From Pseudovirgaria hyperparasitica (lineage: Eukaryota), in NCBI GenBank assembly GCA_010093815.1, contig ML996570.1: DNA of 64,000 bases. One strand, given 5' to 3'. This document shows, piece by piece, positions 19,687 to 33,850 of this stretch. The position numbers were made by a program, and so were the translations under genes. The notes under the pieces are model-generated. The model was not told where the DNA came from and searched no databases. It saw nothing but the letters and a program-made list of their open reading frames with translations. The first letter of the stretch is position 1. The number at the start of each line of letters is the position of its first letter.

Positions 19687-19770
19687 CATATCTATGCTTT
19701 CCACTATATTTCTGTACTGCAGTTGTCGTTGCTCCGCTAAAGCCACAGCCTCAACCCCAGGCCTCAACAA

Positions 19771-22700
19771 ATGGCACCCCAAAGCTCTCCTCTGCCCTCG
19801 ACGCAAGCGAAGAAGCAAGCTTCCATCTCAAGCTTCTTCACACCTAAGTCATCAGCGCCGAAATCCTCACCACCTGCCCCGGAAGCTACCACCAGTGGCG
19901 GACACAAACCAGTAAGTAAAGAGCATGGAGACTCTGTGCGCTCAACATCGGGCACAAAGCGATCTCGTGAGGATGGAGAAGAGCATTCACCACTAGCCCG
20001 ACCTCAATCGAAGAAGAAGCGTCCTTTGATGGCATCTGCTAGCATTGATGACAGCTTTGAGGCGGGGACTCTCCCCATGACCAATGGATGCACTGCTTCC
20101 AGCTCTGCAACACAAAAGAATGCGAATGGGTTGAAAGTCTCGGGGCGAACGTCCAAATACCTCTTCTCGAGCTCACCTCTGCACGATGAGAACGAAAGCG
20201 ACCAGGATACAGAGGAGAAGAAGCAAGAGAAGGACCGCCTACACCAGCGCTTTGTCAGGAAGCTGGGTAGGCCAGAGGCTATGGCAGAGATCAGACGACG
20301 CAATCATACCGGCACTGAAGACCCCGCCGCTGCTGAGGAGGGCGAGGAAGAGGAGGGCGAGGAAGAAACCCCAGCACTGAAAGGCAGAGGAAGGAGATTA
20401 GCTGCAACAAAGAAGCCCAAGACACTTACACCTATGGAGAAACAAGTGGTGGAACTCAAAAAGAGCAATATGGATACACTTTTGGTCGTAGAGGTTGGTT
20501 ACAAATTCAGGTTTTTCGGTGAAGATGCTAGAATAGCAGCGAAAGAACTGAGCATCGTATGTATACCTGGCAAGTTTCGATTCGACGATCATCCATCAGA
20601 AGCACATCTCGAAAAGTTTGCGTCTGCAAGTATCCCCGTTCACAGACTGCACGTCCATGTCAAGCGACTGGTTGCAGCCGGACACAAGGTCGGCGTAGTC
20701 AGGCAATTGGAAACGGCTGCATTGAAGGCAGTCGGTGATAACCGCAACACGCCGTTTGTCAGGAAACTTACCAATCTGTACACAAAAGGCACGTACATCG
20801 ATGATGTGGAGGGCCTGGAGGGATCTTTGAACACACCTAGCGACCAGGCCCCTGCCACGGGATATCTGCTCTGCATGACAGAAACGAACGCAAAAGGTTG
20901 GGGTGATGATGAGAAGGTTCATGTTGGCATAGTTGCTGTGCAGCCTGCGACTGGCGATATTATATACGATGACTTCGAGGATGGCTTCATGCGGAGTGAG
21001 ATCGAGACGCGCCTTTTGCATATCGCCCCTTGCGAATTTCTCATTGTTGGAGAAATGTCGAAAACGACGGAGAAGCTAGTCAGTCATCTGTCGGGAAGTA
21101 AGACAAACGTGTTTGGCGATCAGGCCCGCGTAGAGAGAGTTGCAAAGAACAAGACTATGGCTGCGGAAGCCTTCAGTCATATCTCCAATTTCTATGCGGA
21201 TAGAGTGAAGACGGAAGCAGGTTACTCTGCGAACACAGAAACTGCCACACATGTCCTCGATCAAGCACACCAGCTATCTGAGCTCGTATCAATATGCTTG
21301 TCAGCTATGATCAAGCACATGTCTGAGTATGGTCTCGAACATGTGTTTGACCTGACTAAATACTTCCAGCCATTCAGTGCACGATCACATATGCTGCTGA
21401 ATGGAAACACACTTACGAGTCTGGAGATCTATCAGAATCAAACTGATCATACTGAGAAGGGCAGTTTGTTCTGGTGTATCAATCGCACGAAAACAAGGTT
21501 CGGTCACCGATTGCTTCGCAAATGGGTAGGCAGGCCTTTACTCGACAAGCTGCAGCTTGAAGACCGCATAGCTGCAGTGGAAGAACTCAAGAAAGGAGAA
21601 CACACTATCCCTGTTGATAAGCTGAACCATGTACTAGGTGGTATCAAGGGAGACCTTGAGAAATCTTTACTTCGAATATACTACCAAAAGTGCACGCGCC
21701 CAGAACTCCTGAACGTACTGCAATCCTTACAGGCTATAGGCAATCACTACGCTGGCGTGAAAGGCCCTGAGTCCGCTGGATTCAGGTCTTCAGTCTTGAA
21801 TGAAGCCATCACTGCTCTTCCCAAAATTTCTGAAGATGTGGTCGGCTATCTGGAAAGAATAAATCCTCAAGCCGCCAAAGTCGACGACAAATATAACTTC
21901 TTCCGTGACGAGTACGACACCGAAGACATCGTTGCTCACCGCTTAGGAATTGCGACCATAGAAAGCGAACTCGACCACCATCGCGCCGAAGCTGCTGAGA
22001 AGATCAAGAAGAAACGTGTCGACTACACCACCGTCGCTGGCATCGAATATCTCATCGAAATCGACAACAAAGAATTAAAGAATGTTCCAGCATCCTGGCA
22101 GAAGATTAGCGGCACAAAAGCCAAATCGCGATTTCACACTCCCACAGTCATCGCAAAAATTCGTGAACGCGACCAACACAAAGAATCGCTCGCCGCCGCC
22201 TGCGACACCGCTTTCAAGACCCTCCTCACCGACATCAGTACTAGATACCAATCTCTACGCGACTGCATACAGGCCCTCGCCCACCTCGACTGTCTCCTCA
22301 GCCTGGCCACCGTCGCCTCGCAACCTGGCTACACGAAACCTACCTTTACCACCTCCCAAACAATCGCGGTTCAAGGCGCTCGCCACCCCATGGTCGAACA
22401 CCTCCTCCTCGACGCCTACGTTCCCAATGATATCCACCTCTCGCATGACCCCAACACCGCCCCCCGCGCCCTTCTTCTCACCGGCCCAAACATGGGCGGC
22501 AAGAGTTCATACGTACGCTCTGTCGCCCTCACAATCATACTCGCCCAACTCGGCTCCTACGTACCTGCGTCCTCAGCATCTCTACCCCTCCTGGATGCCG
22601 TCTTCACCCGCATGGGCGCACATGACAACATGCTCGCTGGCGAAAGCACATTCATGGTCGAGCTCTCCGAAACCGCAGATATCCTCAAGACTGCCACCCC

Positions 22701-23172
22701 GCGCAGCCTGGTCCTCCTGGACGAATTGGGCCGCGGCACGAGCACGCATGACGGCGTTGCCATTGCCAGCGCCGTACTGGAGTATGTCGTCCGCGAGATA
22801 GGCTGCTACACTTTGTTTGTCACACATTACCAGACTCTGGCCCATACTACAAAACGCTTCCCCGCTGGCGAGCTGCGCAATGTGCATATGCGCTTTCGCG
22901 AAAATGAAGGCGTAGAGGAGTCGGAAGGTGAGGTGACATTCTTGTATGAAGTCGGCGAGGGCGTCGCGCATCGCAGTTATGGGCTTAATGTAGCGAGACT
23001 GGCGAGGGTGCCGGGAAGTGTGTTGGAGGTTGCGAGGGAGAAGAGTGGCGAGCTTGAGGGCAGGATGAGAGGAGTCCTAGTGGGCAATGTTGTGAACCTT
23101 GTAGCAAGGGTGATGGAGGAGGGCGATGAGGATGCGGTGGACATGCTAGTAAGGGGTATAGAGGAGCTGTAG
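19771..23172 (+). CDS. MSH3: DNA mismatch repair protein Msh3 (intronless, 1133 aa)
   Basis: PIP box [22 protein letters not shown] (Msh3-type); Walker [40 protein letters not shown]. Confidence 0.97.
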
Positions 23173-23326: not shown

Positions 23327-25296
23327 TCACTCAGTAGAAGCCAGCGGTGGGAATAACATCCCTGCCTCGCCCTCAGGTATGTCAGGCGACTCCCCATAAG
23401 TCCGATCGCAACCGAATTCACAATGTGCCAACGTCCTCTTCTCCTCGCTCACACCCAGCATGTCCAACAACTGCCTGGCCTTGCCGGGCATGAACGGCTG
23501 CAGTAAGATGCCCAAGACCCTGATCGACTCGACAGCATGGAATATGGTAATGTCAAGCGGCTTATTGAGCCCCTTAGCATTCTCCTCGTTCGATTTCTTC
23601 TTGACCAGCATCCATGGCTCGGTCTGTTGGATGAAGGCATTTGCATGCAGCGGCAACTCAATAATGGCCTGAAGTGCCTGATTGACGTCGTTGTTTGCCA
23701 TCATCTGCGAAGCAATATCGCGAGCTTTCTTTATGTGTGCACGCATATCAACATACTCACGATTCTGGCTGTGTTTTTCCGTCGTCTCCATGACGGCGCG
23801 GCGGATGCTCCACTTGCCCTTCAGCAGGCGAGAGACTAAGTTGCCGATTCGATTGCGGAGAATAGTCTGGTATGTGTCGTATATTGCATAGTTGCTGTAG
23901 CTGCTATCTTTAGTAACATTACCGTGAAGAGCAAGGAAACAGCGCAGATTATCCACACCGAACCGGTCGAGTGCGAAAAAGGGGTTGATCACGTTGCCAG
24001 TTGATTTGGACATGCGTTCTTTGCCGAGAAGCCAGTAGCCATGAGTCAGAAATTGTTTGGGAAGGGGAATGTCAAGGGCCATCAGGAATGCGGGCCAGTA
24101 AATACAATGAAAGCTGATTATGATCAGTGGCTGTGGTTGCAAGGTGTATGCATTCCCTGACATACCGCATGATATCTTTGCCGATGATCTGACAATGGGC
24201 TGGCCAGCCACCTATACTCTCCTGTCCCGGGGTCCATGGGAACCCTGCAGCAGTGATATAATTTATGAGAGCGTCTAACCAGACATATATGGTTTGACTT
24301 GAGTCGGTAGGCACAGGTATCCCCCATGTTAATCGTGCACAGGGCCGCGAAACGGACAAATCTTCAGTGTCCGTGCCAGCTTCCACGCCACGAACGATAT
24401 CCTGCATTCGCACGTCTGGCAGGATCCAGCGCGGATTATCTTTGTACCATTCCAACAACCTTTCTCGAAAAGCTGAGAGTCGGAATCGGTAATTGATCTC
24501 TGAAACCCATTGAACCTCTTTACCTGTCTCTTTACTGACATTCTTCGTTTTCCCAGTTGCTGTGTCTAGCACACTATGCACTTGAGAAGTAGGATAGAAG
24601 GTCTCATCACTAACGGCATACCAGCCTTCATGCTTCGACTCATATAAGTAGCCCCGATCCGCCAGCATGGACCAAGCATACTGCACAGCTTCTATGTGAT
24701 CCTTGTCGGTAGTCCGTATAAACCGATCGTATTCAACATTACATTCGCTTGCTAGATTCTGCGGGTCTTAGACAGACGGTCACTATAAGCAGAGTGTTTG
24801 GGTGTACCTTGAACAATTGGGCACCGTCGTCGCAGAACGATTTACTTTTGATGCCGGCAAGGGCAGCTGCTTGTTGAATCTAGATTGTTGACAATGGTCA
24901 GGCCGATTGAAAATACAGTCTAATACTGCCATACCTTCATGCCATGCTCATCAGTCCCAGTACACAATATAGCTCTCTTTCCGCATAAAGTGTGCCATCT
25001 CTTCATTATGTCTCCCAGTATCATGGTGTACATATGCCCAATATGAGGCGCTTTCCTTCCATAAGCTTGGGATAGGCCTTGCGGAGTCGAGAGATATCAT
25101 TCGCACCTGCATTGACATAGAATATAGGCGTAGTGATGTATACTGGCCGGTCATCTGAAGCTGTTGAAGCTGTGCTTGAGTAGTAGTGCCACTGCCGCAA
25201 GTCCGTGCGCAAGGAACATGATGGCAAGAAACTCGTTCGTGATACTATGCGAGAGACGGTACGCAACAGTGGCGGAGGTAGAAGTCGTGGTGCCAT
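23327..25296 (-). CDS. MSM1: Mitochondrial methionyl-tRNA synthetase (multi-exon)
   Basis: YITTPIFYVNA|APHIGH (HIGH), TGTDEHG, YVWLDALINY, IGKDI, RMSKS (KMSKS); Arg/Ser-rich presequence. Confidence 0.95.
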
Positions 25297-26010: not shown

Positions 26011-26487
26011 CATTTAGGCGCATCTAACTATTGGTTTCTCGCATATCGGCCAAGAGCAAGATTCGCCGGAGTCAAGGTCACATCCTTGACCATCTCATTC
26101 TCCATCGTATCCATCTAGCTGTTCCCAGTTTTTCCTGACCCATCGTCTTTCCTTGCGTAGGATCAAGGTATGCGTCAATATTGAAAGCCTCCTGGACTGA
26201 CGACTCGTCCCAACTTGAACGTACACGTTATTTTTTAACAAACTTCGGGGCTGAGTCGTTTGGTTGAAGCCCCTCAATATTGCATTCCTGCTCTGATCAG
26301 ACTGGGTCAGTATCAGTATCAACGAGTCCCGCTGTGTTTGAGCCTATATAAAACGCTCAAGTCGCACGAGCTTTTCCTTCCTGTACCAAACAACCTCTCT
26401 GTTCCTCCTTCAGCTTCCTTCACAAGCATCGCCCTCACAACCCAACACCCAGCCTATTCATTCGATACTCTTTTCGGCCTATACACC

Positions 26488-26661
26488 ATGTACCTCAAGC
26501 ATCTCATGGTTGCCTTTGGCCTGGCCTTGATGGCCAGCGCCTCCGCCCGCTACAAAGTCGATGATTCGAAAATCGAAGTGAGAGACCCGAAGTCACCCAT
26601 TTACCATGAGAAGCCCCACAACGTCCAGTGCCAACATCTAGGCGAGCCTTGTGGTGGCTAA
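26488..26661 (+). CDS. Small secreted peptide (57 aa), candidate effector, possibly truncated
   Basis: TATATAAA at ~26345, caccATG, signal peptide MYLKHLMVAFGLALMASASA, C-terminal CQHLGEPCGG*. Confidence 0.6.
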   Translation: MYLKHLMVAFGLALMASASARYKVDDSKIEVRDPKSPIYHEKPHNVQCQHLGEPCGG

Positions 26662-27613
26662 GTTTGTTCAGCCCCGGTGGATAAAGCTCTCCTCGATCCG
26701 CATGGCACTGTCGCGGCGCATCCTACCGCCATGGAAGCTTTATATCAGAATATCATTAGACGATGTCGGTCGATACTTAGCACGTTAAAGTAGCCTATCG
26801 TCAGTGAACAATCATACAAATCTGGTTTACAGTCCACTCGAAGGACGCCTCCAATTCACCAAGCCACACCTCGCATCTGGATCGCCAAGTCACTGGTTAC
26901 TCTTAGAGACATCGACAATCGGAGAACTTCATCCTCTTACACTTTTCATATAGTACGCTGACCTGAATGCAATTTGGTTCATGGTTTTCGGATATCGCAA
27001 TTTTTTTGTAGTCACAGGCAACACACATATTCTTCCTAGTCAGCCCCGACGGTGACAGATTATGTTCATAGAAAGAGGGGGAAACGTACACTGCTTGTTT
27101 CCGTTTGCCTCAGATAATTTGCTGTTGGATACAAAGTTCCAGTCGTTACCGTCGAATACTCACATATATATATACAATGCTTTTATTTACCACGGGCCTT
27201 CACTTTACATAGCTTTTCCAATACTACAGTACCAGGACATTGATCTAGGAACATTTCAGGCAGCGAGGTGTATCCAGATGAATTATCCCTCACTGTATGT
27301 CGGGATTAACACTTCTGCCATGTTCAGACGTTGCATATTTTAGCCTGGTCATCATCCTGCGATTCTTCTAATCAAGCAGAGCACTGTTGTAGCGAACATC
27401 TCGACAGTTCGTAACCGAGGTCCACCGGCTACTCCAAACACACTTCCGCAACTAGTCACGCGCTATACCCGAACCAGCAACTAGCACAGCTGGACACCTA
27501 CTTTATTGCAACCTCAGATTTACGTTCCGGAGCAATTATCAGGATTTCATACCTCCTCTTTACAGTGTTCCACAAAGAACTAATCATTACAGCAAGTAAT
27601 ACTATTACACACT

Positions 27614-29685
27614 ATGGCCAAACCCCAGATCACATTGTACATTGATATCGTGTCGCCATTCGGGTATTTGGCATTTTATGCACTGCGGGTACGTCATCTC
27701 TTTTCTGATTACTACGTGTATGCGACGATCTACCTCTCCTTATGATCGATACCTTTTCTCAATACAAAAACCCACTACGGCCAAGAGATGTTTTTACTAA
27801 TCCAAGATAGAACTTCCCTGTCTTCAAAGCATGCGATATCACGTACGTGCCTATTTTACTAGGCGGCGTCATGAAGGACGTGGGAAATCGTCCTCCATTC
27901 ACTGTCAAAAGTAAGTTTCGTGCTGTATCTTTCTTGAGAGATTAGGTGTGCGCGCGTTGGAGTGATTGTGAATGCTACTGAAAAGGTTGGGACACCACTC
28001 GCTGGCATATGCTCCGGTTCCTCTGAATTCTCAAAGAGCAAAGTTTAACTTTGTTTACGGGATCCTGAGCGCTCTGTGTGTCAAAGCGACATTGTGATAA
28101 TGGCACATTGTGTATGTGACCCTGTTGAGTATATCATGGGACTTGTTAAAGTGCCGTGAGCGAACTTCCCTTCAGACACATTTCAAATTATTGCTGCAAA
28201 ACCTGAGCGTCATTATTTCGATCTTATCACCGATGGATACACCTCACAGCCGCGGGCAACCTACTCCTAATACCACGGACGACTCCAAATACGTCAGTTT
28301 CGGTGTGTTCTTTGGGACTACTACGTTACTGGTATTACTTTTCTTTCAGGGTATTCTCGCCGCCATTATTTATTTTGGCCTTGATACCCCACGCAGGAAG
28401 ATGCTAGATAGGAATCATCATTCAGCACCCGATTTCGTAAGTCATAATGAGCCCTAAATAGTACTTGATCGACTGATATTCCTAATGAATGCCAGACGAG
28501 TCATCGCGCAGAACACTGTTCAAATCAGTACTGGCGATGAAGAATCGTTTCATGACGGCTTTCAATCAGTCACAACTTCGGTTCGTACCACTGGCGCCAT
28601 TCAACAATCCAATCCCATGGACTACGAGTCTGCCATAGTCTCTGAATCTGCACCGCATGTCTCATACCAAAACTCCTCCGGATACGAACAAAGGTCAAGC
28701 GTAGGTCAGCCGAGCTTTGACTCTGAACCGGTCAGCCCCTTGGAGAGTCCTAAGGACAGCAGTATAGGATTTGGAGATCCTAGCTCCTCAGATGTCTCGA
28801 GTGTCTACCAGCAAAGAACCATTTACTCCCATAATCAACCAGCACAAGTCCACCTCCAGGGACCACACCCTTTTTCCCAATCACAGAGCGCCCAAATCTG
28901 CAACCCCTCGCCATATTCTCCGCATGGCTCTACATCCAACGACATTGATTCGATCCGTACGACTGTAGCCTCTGAGAAATACAACACAACACAGCTTGGC
29001 CACAAGTCCTGACCGAGCACATAATCCTCCACGAAGACAGCAGCTTACAGCACACACTGATTACCTATTTCATGCTCTACCTCCGCCCCTCTCCATCACG
29101 CCCCCCTTACAGCAACTAACCACCCCTTTCACAGACAAAGACACCTGGATCGCCAAAGAACGTACACGCTGGCAAAAGACCTTCTCCATCCCGATGCTCA
29201 CCGGCATGCCGCCCAAATTCCCTGCAAACACCGTCCTCGTCCAACGTGCTTTGACGCACGTTTTCCTTACCACACCCTCAGCCACGGCCGACGCCGCCGC
29301 CGCCTGCTTCGAAGCGTACTGGGTCAAAGGGCTTGACATCACCGAACCGACCGTCGTGCATGCGGCGCTGGAGAAAGCGCTGGGACCCAAGGAGGCAGGC
29401 GATGCGTTGGAGGGCGCCAAGAGCGTCCGAGCGAAAGAAGAGTTGGGCAGACTGAGCAAAGGCGCTGTGAATGAGGGCGCGTTTGGGTTGCCATATTTTG
29501 TTGGTGAGTTGAACCGCTGTTGGGTGGTGGAGGATAGGGGTATAGGAAGTGTAGCTAAACATCGAGTAGCGACGAATGCAAAGGGCGAGAAGGAAACTTT
29601 CTGGGGGTTTGATCATTTGGGACAGGTGTGTCGCCATCTCGAGATTGATATGCCGCGCGAGGGCGGGTGGAGATCGGTGTTGTAG
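27614..29685 (+). CDS. 2-hydroxychromene-2-carboxylate isomerase / kappa-class GST (DsbA-like); 4 exons (introns 27689-27810, 27911-29134, 29504-29569)
   Basis: MAKPQITLYIDIVSPFGYLAF, YVPILLGGVMK..GNRPP, N|KDTWIAKERTRW, GAFGLPYF, FWGFDHL; phases match across all three introns. Confidence 0.88.
28233..29012 (+). CDS. Putative nested gene in intron 2 of the HCCA isomerase: single-pass membrane protein with Ser/Pro/Gln-rich tail (~234 aa; intron 28437-28511)
   Basis: Exon 1 has hydrophobic FGVFFGTTTLLVLLFFQGILAAIIYFGL then RRK; GTAAGT donor in phase 0; acceptor 28511 joins the 28485-29012 ORF in frame. Confidence 0.55.
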
Positions 29686-30159
29686 GTGTCTTGATGTAAC
29701 TATGGAACTCGGCGGTGCAAGATGGGGGAGACCCTATCTGGTGAGGAAGAAAATGTACGCCTACGCGTCGCCATCTGGCTCAGAGAAGAAATAGTGCAAT
29801 GGAGTGGGGATAGTCAGTAAGGATTTATTTTTATAGTGAAGTGGGTATCTTTGTTCCTTCATATGCATAAACTTCATAAGTAATGATCGATCCAAACATG
29901 TTGCCCGTAGCATACGACGCCCTTGAATCATGCGATGTGAAGAGACAAACGCCCATGCCAATGCAGTCTTAGAGATACAGAAGCCCAGAACCCACCCGAC
30001 ACTCGCTATGCCCGATAACCCTGATATAACAAAAGAAACTATTCATGCCATTTCGATTTCGTCATAGCTGTACATCTCGCGCAATTCCTGACACCGTCTC
30101 TGCAGAGAACGCACACGGGCCATGCGTTGTAGTCTTGCAGCTCCTTCCTATCGACCATG

Positions 30160-33100
30160 TTAGCTCGCATAACTAGCAGCAGATAGAACCCGCGACGCAG
30201 GTGCCGAAGCTACTACATTATCATGAGCTGCTGGCTGCGTAAGTCTCTGGCGAACTCCTGCAAGAGAAGTGTTACTTCCGATAGACGAGTTTGCACCAGT
30301 CTGAAGGCCAATGTTACGGGTGCTGCGTCGCCGGTTGATAGTAGGCGATGGTGGGTTGGCACCCTGATTTGTAGACGAAGCACTTGCAGGCGTCGATGTA
30401 GGAGGATGACTAGTGTTCATTGACACGTATGCACCCCCTGCAGAGAACCTGTTAGCTCCATTTGATATGATTGAACCTTGCGCTGGGGTTCCAGGATTAC
30501 TCGAGATGCTCGGCCTTCTACTATTTGGAGCGAAGGGGTTGGTAGCGCGCAGCTCTCTTAGGCGACCTTGAACAAGTTCGTTTGCACGACGTTGTCGCTC
30601 CTCTACCGACAGACCAGAGGTCGAGGTTGGATTTGCACGGGTTCCAGGACCAGCACCAGTTGCAGCTGAATTGATTGGCGACAATTGTACGCCGTCATTC
30701 TGACGTAGTGTACGCGTCGACGGCTGGCTATGCAATCTTTGCACAGATGGCTGAGCGCGAAGTGTCATGCGTGATCTTTGTGCCCTCATCGCCCCAGTTG
30801 GAGCTACCTCATCTCTGACATCAGCCCTGGATTGTTGCGTGCGGAGGGCGCGACGTGAAGTCGAAGGACGGAGCGTTGCTGTGGAAGATTGCTCTCGAAG
30901 CCTCTGTGAAGATTGTCTGGGTCGAGGTGCGTTGCCGTGCATGCCAATGAAAGCCGAATACGGATTTCTTGTCTGAGATTGCCAAGTACGTTGCGCAAAA
31001 TTGAGCCCAGGGCCACCCAAACTCGATCCAGGTGCAATTTGAAGACCAGGATGAGTACCCATGAAGCTTTGGGATCCTCGTCGGCTTGAAGACGAGGGTG
31101 GTCGTGCTGGAAGCCGGCTTGCAGGGCGTTCAATAGGGTCCATGGGAAAAGACGTCACACCCGGTGGTACGCTGCTCATGGTATTGGAAGGACGATGCCG
31201 ATCGTCAGGTGAAGGAAAAGTACTTCGGAGTGTCGATCCACTACCCACAGAACCTACAGATGTCTCTCGATCGAGGCGAACTCCATTGTGAAAGCTGTGC
31301 GCATCTGTCGTGGAGAGGTTGGAACTTACGCTACCGGTCCGTTCGGATCGCGAGGTTGATTCGGCATTGGTGGCCATATGAAAGGATTGCCTATCGGCTC
31401 TTCGTGTACGAGGTGAAAGATCACTAGGTGCCGTCAAGGGGTTCACGTTGTTAGAAAGTGGCGAGAAAGGCGTTGGTGTAATAGACTGGGCATTCCGGTT
31501 GCGATTCGCGGTACGTGGTCGAGCTATTGGCGTCGTCGAACGGAGCTCTTCGAGCCAGTTGATTTGTTGGGTTAGTGCGGCTTGCATCTCATTCTGATGC
31601 TGGGCAAACATCCAGCTGATACGTGGATTATATTCCTGTCTATTTTGACCCAGCTGTCGCCGTCTAGGGGACTGGATGGATGTGTCATCCGAATTGTCAT
31701 CGTCTTCGCCATCCAGACCGTCCCCTAACGTCAGAGTATTCGTAGAGCGACCAGGCTGCGAGGATGGAAAGGGGCCGTGAAGTCGGATTCTCGAGTTGCG
31801 ATTGCGAAGCTGGCCTCCATTCATGACGGTATCACCATCGCGATCCATTTCTGAGTCATCATCATCTGCCTCGCCGTCTTCGTAATTACTAGTCGATACG
31901 GACAGAATCGAGCTTCTTCTTCGTAGTCCTCGGGAACCGTCTGGGAAACGTGTCTGGCCAATTCGAGATCGGGGCCGAGCTTGTAGGGTTGGTCTATCTG
32001 CAACAGGCGTTAGAGAATTCGTGATCCGAGGTCGCGCGTTTGGGTCCGCAGTCTGTTCCCACCCAACTGTCGTGCGCCCACCGTCGCTTTCATCTCCTTG
32101 GCCCTCCTCCACATCCTCTTCCGGTCCATGTTGCAGGGGCGACCATCCATGTCGGCTAAGCAGTCGTTGTGTATCCTCATCAAGATCGTGGTCCGCTGAA
32201 GCGTCTGTTGATATAGACGAGGCGACTCTATGAGATCCTCCATTGGCCCGCGAGAGGACCCGTTGTTGTCGTCGTTGACGTCCAGGTCGAACTGGACCAC
32301 CCTCTTCATCATCATCGTCATCGTCATCGGCTTGCGTGGACCTTGGTCCGATGCTAGACGTTTCGGATTCAACAACACGACGATTCCTAGCCCTACGGCG
32401 CTGGCTTGATTGACTTGAGATTGGTGGTTGCGGAGTTTGGCTATTGGTGGAACCGCTGGCATCGGACATCTGTTCGGTTGCGCGATCATCCAGGAACCCG
32501 CTCATTGATGAATCCTCATCGTCCATATCTTCCTCCTCCTCCTCTTCAAGCATCTCAAGGTCCTCGGTGCCGTACATGTCTGAGGCTGAAGCAATGCTCG
32601 CGCTGTATCGCTGGCGACCACCGGCAGCACTATGTGCTGCGGGTCGTCTACGTGCAAGTCCGGCGGGCATGGCGGCGCGTGCCGCCGCTGGGTGGTTGTT
32701 CAGCCATTGGCTCACTACCAAGTCGGCTTCGTCCATGTAGGCTTCTTCCGAGTACGGAAGGTCCCCGGTGCCTTCAAGGTCGTCCTCATCAGGAAAATCG
32801 TCTTCATCCATGTAATCATCACCAATGTCAATATCTCTGTCCATGTCTTCACTAGAGCCACCCATGTCCGACTCGTCGACATCGATTGCGTCGAGGTGAA
32901 ATTCGATGTCGTCCGCCTCAAATCCGCATCTTTGACAACTGCCCTCTTCAAGCTCCCAGGTGCAGAATGGGCACCTGTCGACATTGTCTTCGAAGTCTCG
33001 GATAGCACGCCTAGGCCCCAAGCGAGACAAATTGGATCTAAAAACGCCTTTGAACAGCCCCCCTAATCTTGGGTCGTCATTCTCACGATCTTTCTGTACT

Positions 33101-33850
33101 GCTTCTGCCTCTTCTGCTCGCCATGCTTTGTGCTGCTCGAGACTTTCGCCGACTGGGAGGTATTCGGCGCGATTGATGAAGATTGTTGTCATTTCTCGGA
33201 TCTTAAACAATCAGCATGCATACGTTGAACAACACGATAGGGGTCACATACTAGATATGCTGGTGATGGTACCTGAGTGACCAATGTGCGGCAGTCGGGA
33301 CATGTTTTGCGTTTCTTGTTGTTAACAAACCAGTGGGAGAGGCACTATGTGCTTGTCAGCTCGAACCTGCGTGCTGAATGATATAGGTAACTCACACTGT
33401 AGCAATAAATGTGCCCACACGCAACCACATAGGGCTCGTATAACAGTTTATCGCATATCTTGCACGTAATAATAGATCGAAGACTGGCAAAATCTTCAGA
33501 ATAGCCTTTCAATAGCTGCATTATTCTGTCAGTAGAGCTCATATCAATTCCGCGGGATTGCTGGCCTCTTCATTTTTGCTGAGCGTTGCAGACTCATCCA
33601 GCTTCTTCGAGCCCTTTGATTTCAGGCTGATACTACTGGCAGTCCGGGTGGGCTTGTCCTTGTTCTCGACAGCCTTGTTGAACGCTGTATCGGAGCTTAT
33701 AGAGGGTCTCCTGGGTTGTTTGGACGAAGACGCAATAGCAGCTGATGGAGGGGGTGTACTAGTCTGAGCTAGATTGTTGGCTGGATTTGAAGACGATGCT
33801 GTGACTTTGCTTCGTGAGCCGGTGGGGGTGGGGGACGGTCGTGTGTCCAT
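30160..33850 (-). CDS. PSH1: RING-finger E3 ubiquitin ligase, Psh1-like, with long acidic/disordered C-terminus; 4 exons
   Basis: CKICDKLLYEPYVVACGHIYCYS|CLSHWF..KTCPDCR (C3HC4); DFEDNVDRCPFCTWELEEGSCQRCG second Cys cluster; first intron probably GC-AG (33516-33565). Orthology is inferred. Confidence 0.8.

Follow-up and report, generated by a model that had tools for sequence, protein, structure and literature searches.

A gene for a kappa-class glutathione S-transferase (GST)/HCCA isomerase-like enzyme in Pseudovirgaria hyperparasitica carries a 1,224-nucleotide (nt) second intron, and within that intron, on the same strand, lies another open reading frame (ORF) with a short intron of its own. 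The gene sits in a 64,000-nt stretch of contig ML996570.1 (assembly GCA_010093815.1), referred to here as the window; we call the enzyme gene the host and the enclosed frame the guest. Assembled RNA contigs contained two forms of the transcript, one from which the large intron had been removed and one in which it was kept while the small inner intron was cut out. The reading we favor, at a probability of roughly 0.55, is that an old intron has expanded and now holds a transcribed orphan frame and a working inner donor, and that it is alternatively retained.

Sequence inspection and scripted translation gave a four-exon host gene at 27614-29685 on the plus strand, encoding 219 amino acids (aa). 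The public protein P0001 (219 aa), labeled by NCBI as HCCA isomerase/glutathione S-transferase kappa of P. hyperparasitica, equals this spliced model residue for residue, indicating that the host model, long intron included, is already part of the public annotation. A word-index search with exon 3 returned P0001 as the single protein above 214 aa, 100% identical over the query. Exon 3 alone scored 26.7 bits against the Pfam DSBA family PF01323 (cut-off 25.6), a domain that is also precomputed on P0001. At E <= 0.001, P0001 matched five distinct solved sequences, the best being human GSTK1 (1yzx_A, E 6.7e-19, residues 6-200), and the GSTK1 alignment is gapless at the junction of host exons 2 and 3.

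Out of 943 candidate proteins, 100 scored E <= 1e-20 against the host; these are fungal homologues that likewise measure ~220 aa, the closest of which, self excluded, share only 53-54% identity with it. In a 26-sequence alignment that includes the host, the two residues where exons 2 and 3 meet, N59 and K60, are invariant, as are D11, V13, S14, P15 and F16 of the N-terminal D-x-V-S-P-F motif, whose serine we take to be the catalytic residue of kappa GSTs. The PF01323 domain, full-length kappa-GST similarity and the motif together place the host among the kappa GST/HCCA isomerases, which have a DSBA-like thioredoxin fold, and show that it is an intact gene of this kind. The protein itself does not differ from the family; its gene structure alone does, by one oversized intron.

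The large intron has the hallmarks of a spliceosomal intron. Exon 2 ends at 27910 with ..PPFTVK plus A, directly followed by GTAAGT, and exon 3 begins at 29135 with AC plus KDTWIAKERTRW, so that the split codon AAC encodes N59. A branch-like CTAAC occupies 29116-29120, upstream of a CAG acceptor whose last base is 29134. The other two host introns are short, at 66 and 122 nt. The initial annotation had described most introns here as about 50 nt long, a statement whose checked scope is three RNA-supported neighbors of 122, 59 and 66 nt and orthologous introns of 52-175 nt.

Four sequencing runs were compared with the window, all as assembled contigs. X1 and X2 are DNA, possibly the source of the assembly, and their contigs are colinear with the window, with zero joins and zero differences. 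X3 and X4 derive from one sample of one study, the kind of which is not on record; we took them as RNA because their contigs contain GT..AG joins that X1 and X2 lack. In X4, record 5 (4,854 letters) starts at 27610 and covers 27610-27687, 27810-27910, 29135-29502 and 29569-29900, with GT..AG joins that skip 122 nt, 1,224 nt (101 letters on the shorter side) and 66 nt. The second of these is the 27910-29135 junction by which the initial annotation had proposed checking its 1,224-nt, phase-preserving intron, and RNA and sequence agree on it. RNA from which segment 27911-29134 has been cut shows it to be a genuine spliceosomal intron.

The X3 contigs follow a different path through the same region. 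Record 3 (1,219 letters, depth 737.3) holds 27300-27687 at its letters 630-1017, with 202 more letters beyond, has intron 1 spliced, and then runs from 27810 unspliced through the exon 2 donor up to 28436. Its alignment ends exactly there, at the predicted inner donor, with two unplaced letters past it; one idea is that the assembly graph forks at this end, one arm joining to 28496 and the other to 29135. In record 4 (5,315 letters), 28418-28436 is adjacent to 28496-29502, so that 29134/29135 is passed unspliced, after which intron 3 is spliced and the contig continues beyond 29900. The X3 contigs are thus unspliced at both ends of the large intron, where either flank far exceeds the 31 letters that our rule for joins demands on the shorter side, while introns 1 and 3 are spliced, and the 27910-29135 join is absent from all X3 contigs. 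The depths of X3 record 4 (257.1) and X4 record 5 (113.6) cannot rank the two forms, both records consisting mostly of the convergent downstream gene.

X3 passing both outer splice sites, X4 removing the intron and the other introns being spliced constitute intron retention. The form without the outer intron and the form that retains it are mutually exclusive on any one molecule, so the exclusivity suggested in the initial annotation holds at the RNA level. The intron interior is represented in X4 by two separate low-depth contigs, 28111-28318 (depth 5.1) and 28745-29099 (depth 4), and 27911-28110, 28319-28744 and 29100-29134 have no cover. Reading these gaps as an RNA start near 28.1 kilobases (kb) and an end near 29.1 kb was rejected, as contig holes prove nothing. 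The features of the locus are collected in Table 1.

Table 1. Features of the host gene and of the frame within its second intron (window positions).
Feature	Position	Strand	Remarks
Upstream stretch	27300-27613	+	In the same X3 contig as host exons 1-2 and guest exon 1
Host exon 1	27614-27688	+	25 codons from ATG; translation equals P0001
Host intron 1	27689-27810	+	122 nt, GTACGT..TAG; RNA join 27687/8-27810/1 in X3 and X4
Host exon 2	27811-27910	+	33 codons and one further base; present in X3 and X4 contigs
Host intron 2	27911-29134	+	1,224 nt, phase 1, GTAAGT donor, CAG acceptor
Guest ORF exon 1	28233-28436	+	68 codons from ATG; hydrophobic helix at residues 32-50, then RRK
Inner intron	28437-28495	+	59 nt, GTAAGT..CAG (nearer AG); branch-like CTGAT and CTAAT upstream of the AG
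Short guest ORF tail	28496-28540	+	14 codons plus TGA at 28538-28540; 82 codons in total (scripted translation)
Long open frame	28512-29012	+	166 codons plus stop at 29010-29012; rich in Ser, Gln and Pro
Host exon 3	29135-29503	+	Core of the DSBA-like domain; PF01323; P0001 match; RNA contigs
Host intron 3	29504-29569	+	66 nt; 66-nt join in X3 and X4
Host exon 4	29570-29685	+	Stop TAG at 29683-29685

The guest ORF (28233-29012) lies wholly within the host intron, and its inner GT..AG reads on the plus strand, so the same-strand position described in the initial annotation stands. That annotation had joined the inner donor, GTAAGT at 28437, to the farther of two AGs, which end at 28495 and 28511, 16 nt apart, giving a two-exon transmembrane protein of 234 aa, and had cautioned that the nearer AG would yield a much shorter one. 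The caution was borne out. X3 record 4 joins 28436 to 28496 (GT..AG, 59 nt skipped), and the join from 28436 to 28512 was not seen among the listed contigs. The only inner join found, with 19 letters on its short side and so below the 31-letter rule, leads to 82 codons in place of 234. The ORF, its GTAAGT donor and the hydrophobic helix (Kyte-Doolittle mean 2.47) therefore survive from the original proposal, and the 234-codon splice is not supported. The long open frame shares the frame of guest exon 1 and is reached only through the farther AG.

Homologues elsewhere place the intron position in time. When metagenomes were scanned with the 26-sequence alignment, 80 loci were retained, and tblastn matches were chained on them. 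The match was uninterrupted across residues 50-68 in 61 of the 80 (34 of these have breaks elsewhere) and broken near residue 59 in 17; the remaining 2 fit neither class. Splice sites were refined in 18 loci, comprising 16 of the 17 broken ones plus L030 and L040; L056 was omitted, its coordinates being the same as those of L055. A phase-1 intron at the same codon (..K-NK..) was found in 14 of the 18, with lengths of 52, 53, 53, 52, 53, 62, 74, 62, 82, 55, 62, 175, 131 and 55 nt. For the other four, refinement of L027 was implausible, L045 and L058 gave no solution, and L040 does not fall at this site. Near-duplicate loci (L028/L029, L030/L049 and L035/L044) reduce the set to ~11 independent lineages.

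Near-full-length homologue matches (n=47) span 660-1,112 nt, with a median of 933, versus 2,072 nt here, and host intron 2 is 7-23 times longer than the introns at the same site in homologue loci. At these predicted lengths, none of the compared homologues could fit a guest ORF. The same codon and phase recurring in homologues, always with a short intron, indicates that the position is older than the species and that the length is lineage-specific. The recent insertion considered in the initial annotation is plausible only insofar as the intron at this old position has grown to 7-23 times the length found elsewhere, and is not backed by any repeat, mobile-element domain or paralogue. Introns also recur in many metagenomic loci (L004, L014, L017, L020, L039, L045, L048 and others) at the two other host positions, one of which follows residue 25 while the other separates residues 181 and 182. 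All three host intron positions look old, with different lineages apparently having lost different ones.

Features around the guest start codon bear on its translation. The guest ATG has C at -3. In an RNA that began where X3 record 3 ends upstream, 13 ATGs would precede it, and there are zero ATGs within 28139-28232, so efficient guest translation would need an RNA start after 28138. An 18-nt inverted repeat, 27259-27276 with 28234-28251, is 89% complementary and may well be due to chance; its first arm falls within the upstream stretch of the X3 contig, and its second begins with the base immediately following the A of the guest start codon.

Homology searches with the guest returned no credible homologue of either exon. 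Neither exon had a Pfam match at E <= 1, and the long frame had 0 matches at E <= 0.01 among 10 word-sharing candidates. Against 1.84 billion representatives, exon 1 gave one match at E <= 0.001, P0002 (1,112 aa, 10 stretches), which we rejected as spurious because it is a tandem-repeat, junk-like translation. An Atlas search with the guest exons produced no usable match, recognition being low (values 815 and 1,421). Protein libraries that include this organism's host protein held no protein containing either guest exon, showing that the guest is unannotated and has no annotated paralogue.

Several candidate explanations for the extra DNA were tried and rejected. An intron-hosted snoRNA or similar RNA was sought by an Rfam scan of 27000-30000 at E values up to 1, which returned only CLRN1-AS1, at 18.1 bits versus a gathering score of 48 (E 0.15). 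For a mobile-element insertion, we found no target-site duplication, terminal repeat, element domain or copy in the window. The intron contains 3 short inverted pairs, with 0 families of direct repeats and 0 tandem repeats; among 15 ORFs taken on both strands of the intron and its margins, 0 had a Pfam match better than E 0.39; and comparison of the intron with the rest of the window showed no similarity beyond a 14-nt match. A stwintron, in which one intron lies within another, was discarded as the inner intron is far from the outer GTAAGT (27911), CTAAC (29116) and CAG (29134), all of them whole.

Three ways of adding intron sequence to the host product also failed. A retained-intron isoform extending the host protein was rejected, as the exon 2 frame reads just 11 codons into the intron. 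A restart of the host protein upstream of exon 3 would use a frame that is open from 28969 and has no ATG, and joining the guest donor to the host acceptor is out of frame. The open stretch upstream of exon 3 (28969-29134, plus strand, 55 codons before the acceptor) overlaps the end of the guest long frame.

These results suggest how an expanded intron could act at this locus. Removal of the outer intron would give mRNA for the 219-aa enzyme, and keeping it while cutting only the 59-nt inner intron would give an RNA carrying the guest ORF. In the retained form the host frame stops after 69 codons, 11 of them in the intron (scripted translation), and the guest frame as spliced is predicted to encode an 82-codon micro-protein with a single membrane helix. 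Fungal spliceosomes pair splice sites across short introns (intron definition), under which the short inner intron would be an easy one to recognize and the 1.2-kb outer pair a difficult one. Keeping the large intron in the RNA might then be an off state of the enzyme, possibly a regulated one. The guest ORF is most likely a lineage-specific frame, presumably young, that rides on the retained RNA.

A number of points weigh against our reading of an expanded, alternatively retained intron with an orphan frame. The 303-codon span containing a single internal stop had P ~0.0005 in 4,000 simulations, and that sole stop falls inside the mini-intron. Codon scores (log-odds of codon usage, with 14 long ORFs of the window as the training set) came to 0.096 in exon 1 and 0.057 in the long frame; 4.2% and 7.6% of 118 spurious ORFs reach these values, which lie near the median and the lower quartile, respectively, of true coding chunks. 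The coding-like score starts at the guest ATG, the 44 open codons upstream scoring -0.115. Taken together, these statistics favor a long frame that is truly coding and would be put out of frame by the observed splice. The inner join on which that splice depends falls short of the 31-letter rule noted above. Contigs, with one depth per record, cannot prove single molecules, starts, ends or ratios, and both RNA runs represent one sample of one study whose kind is not on record. The nearest sequenced relatives are only 53-54% identical even for this conserved enzyme, so the missing guest homologues are weak evidence against a real gene, and a fast-evolving, disordered guest protein could escape detection.

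A true same-strand nested gene, with its own promoter and polyadenylation within the intron, an 82- or 234-aa membrane protein as product and interference with host splicing that makes host and guest alternate in expression, would be the main alternative, which we consider less likely. It would account for the coding-like ORF statistics and codon scores that begin at the ATG and for a canonical inner donor used in RNA. An RNA starting within 28139-28232 would meet the guest ATG first, the two low-depth X4 contigs lie apart from the spliced host contig, and in human cells nested genes are known to cause introns of the host to be retained and exonized (Kaer et al. 2011, PMC3192792). Yet RNA starts and ends are unreadable from contigs, the guest region in X3 is continuous with host exons on both sides, and no homologue or paralogue appeared in libraries that contain the host protein; the long frame, moreover, is unused by the observed splice, and the start codon has the C at -3. 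That a coding gene was born or lodged, with no detectable parent, in the old intron of this housekeeping-type enzyme gene and now shares its transcription unit, with one splice choice (outer intron out, or the inner one alone) setting whether enzyme or guest is produced and a second, between acceptors 16 nt apart, giving an 82- or 234-aa membrane protein, seems to us unlikely.

We think it improbable that nothing here is functional, that is, that the intron merely grew, the frame arose by chance in T-poor DNA and X3, owing to its library type or depth, captured slowly processed or nuclear pre-mRNA of an inefficiently spliced long intron. X3 follows the unspliced path even though the short flanking introns are fully spliced and the inner intron is removed, and the single-stop 303-codon span, with its stop inside the mini-intron, is rare in simulations. 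What speaks for such an accident is the orphan status of the frame, the single sample behind X3 and X4, and the fact that intron retention is the usual splice variant in fungi. A 184-codon open frame also arises in about 1% of simulations (P ~0.014 when the whole intron was simulated 3,000 times under a first-order Markov model, P ~0.01 in 5,000 runs at local composition), and the window holds several other unexplained frames of 170-244 codons.

The initial annotation had also raised the prospect that a recent insertion cripples the host. An intron 7-23 times longer than usual and a retained form that truncates the host at 69 codons would suit an insertion that broke or is breaking the gene, but we give this explanation hardly any credence, since it is largely refuted by the 27910-29135 join. 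The host contig is precisely spliced and encodes a full-length protein that keeps all invariant residues of the 26 homologues, the match to GSTK1 is full-length and gapless, and the intron carries none of the insertion marks (target-site duplication, terminal repeat, element domain or window copy) that we looked for.

Comparison with known systems shows partial likenesses. Among Drosophila melanogaster nested genes, 71.27% lie on the opposite strand from the host and 72.53% of the same-strand ones are single-exon, a bias in strand and exon number that Lee and Chang 2013 ascribed to selection against mis-splicing, proposing that host splicing is disturbed by the splice sites that a nested gene on that strand brings with it (PMC3814207). 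Like the same-strand fly genes, our candidate lies wholly within a host intron, and RNA here is unspliced for the host intron and spliced for the guest. Unlike the single-exon majority in flies, the guest has an intron, and its host is a compact fungal gene. The fly nested genes are annotated, have transcripts of their own and are often young duplicates, whereas the guest is known from contigs, and no homologue or parent copy of it was found.

Human nested genes and L1 elements have been linked to transcriptional interference, with retention of introns, forced exonization and polyadenylation at cryptic sites (Kaer et al. 2011, PMC3192792). The locus resembles these cases in that an insert-bearing intron is retained or exonized, depending on the splice sites of the insert; it differs in that the human examples involve many-kilobase introns and minigenes, and ours two assembled RNA contig sets only. 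As in the intron retention coupled to nonsense-mediated decay of Yarrowia lipolytica (PMC2911113), the retained form meets an early stop, here after 69 codons, but unlike that case it keeps 1.2 kb with its own spliced inner intron and a long open frame. The arrangement is also reminiscent of the stwintrons of Aspergillus (PMC6616335), which likewise place an intron within an intron in a filamentous ascomycete; the inner intron of a stwintron breaks an outer splice signal, whereas here 526 nt separate it from the outer donor and 639 nt from the acceptor. A fungal gene-prediction paper describes nested genes as rare (PMC4363200), and a literature search by title and abstract start, with partial coverage, found no report from a filamentous fungus of a gene nested in an intron on the host's strand.

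In compact fungal genomes introns are short and nested genes very scarce, and gene callers usually drop a model that falls within an intron on the same strand. The host locus is useful in combining an old, anchored intron position with a lineage-specific, 10-20-fold expansion and with RNA for both the spliced and the guest-bearing retained forms. It offers a tractable case for studying how new reading frames gain free expression within host transcripts, and how a long intron with internal splice sites competes with its own removal under intron definition. Should the guest be untranslated, the locus would still illustrate clearly how an oversized intron can be retained unproductively.

Several neighboring features in the window were also recorded. 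Upstream of the host, a TATAAAA at 26346-26352 precedes a 57-codon ORF at 26489-26662 (plus strand) with a signal-peptide-like hydrophobic N-terminus, which may be a small secreted-peptide gene; its longer stop-to-stop frame had no Pfam match. Downstream, 30160-33210 on the minus strand holds a 1,016-codon ORF rich in Ser, Arg and Pro, with Cys-x2-Cys ... Cys-x2-Cys near its N-terminus and no Pfam match. RNA contigs containing the last host exons extend ~3.9 kb beyond 29900; provided that they stay colinear with the genome, they would reach this convergent gene, and the 3' ends of the two genes would overlap. Farther upstream are a MutS-family ORF at 19741-23169 (plus strand, 1,143 codons uninterrupted) and a methionyl-tRNA synthetase at 23330-24767 (minus strand) split over two overlapping ORFs.

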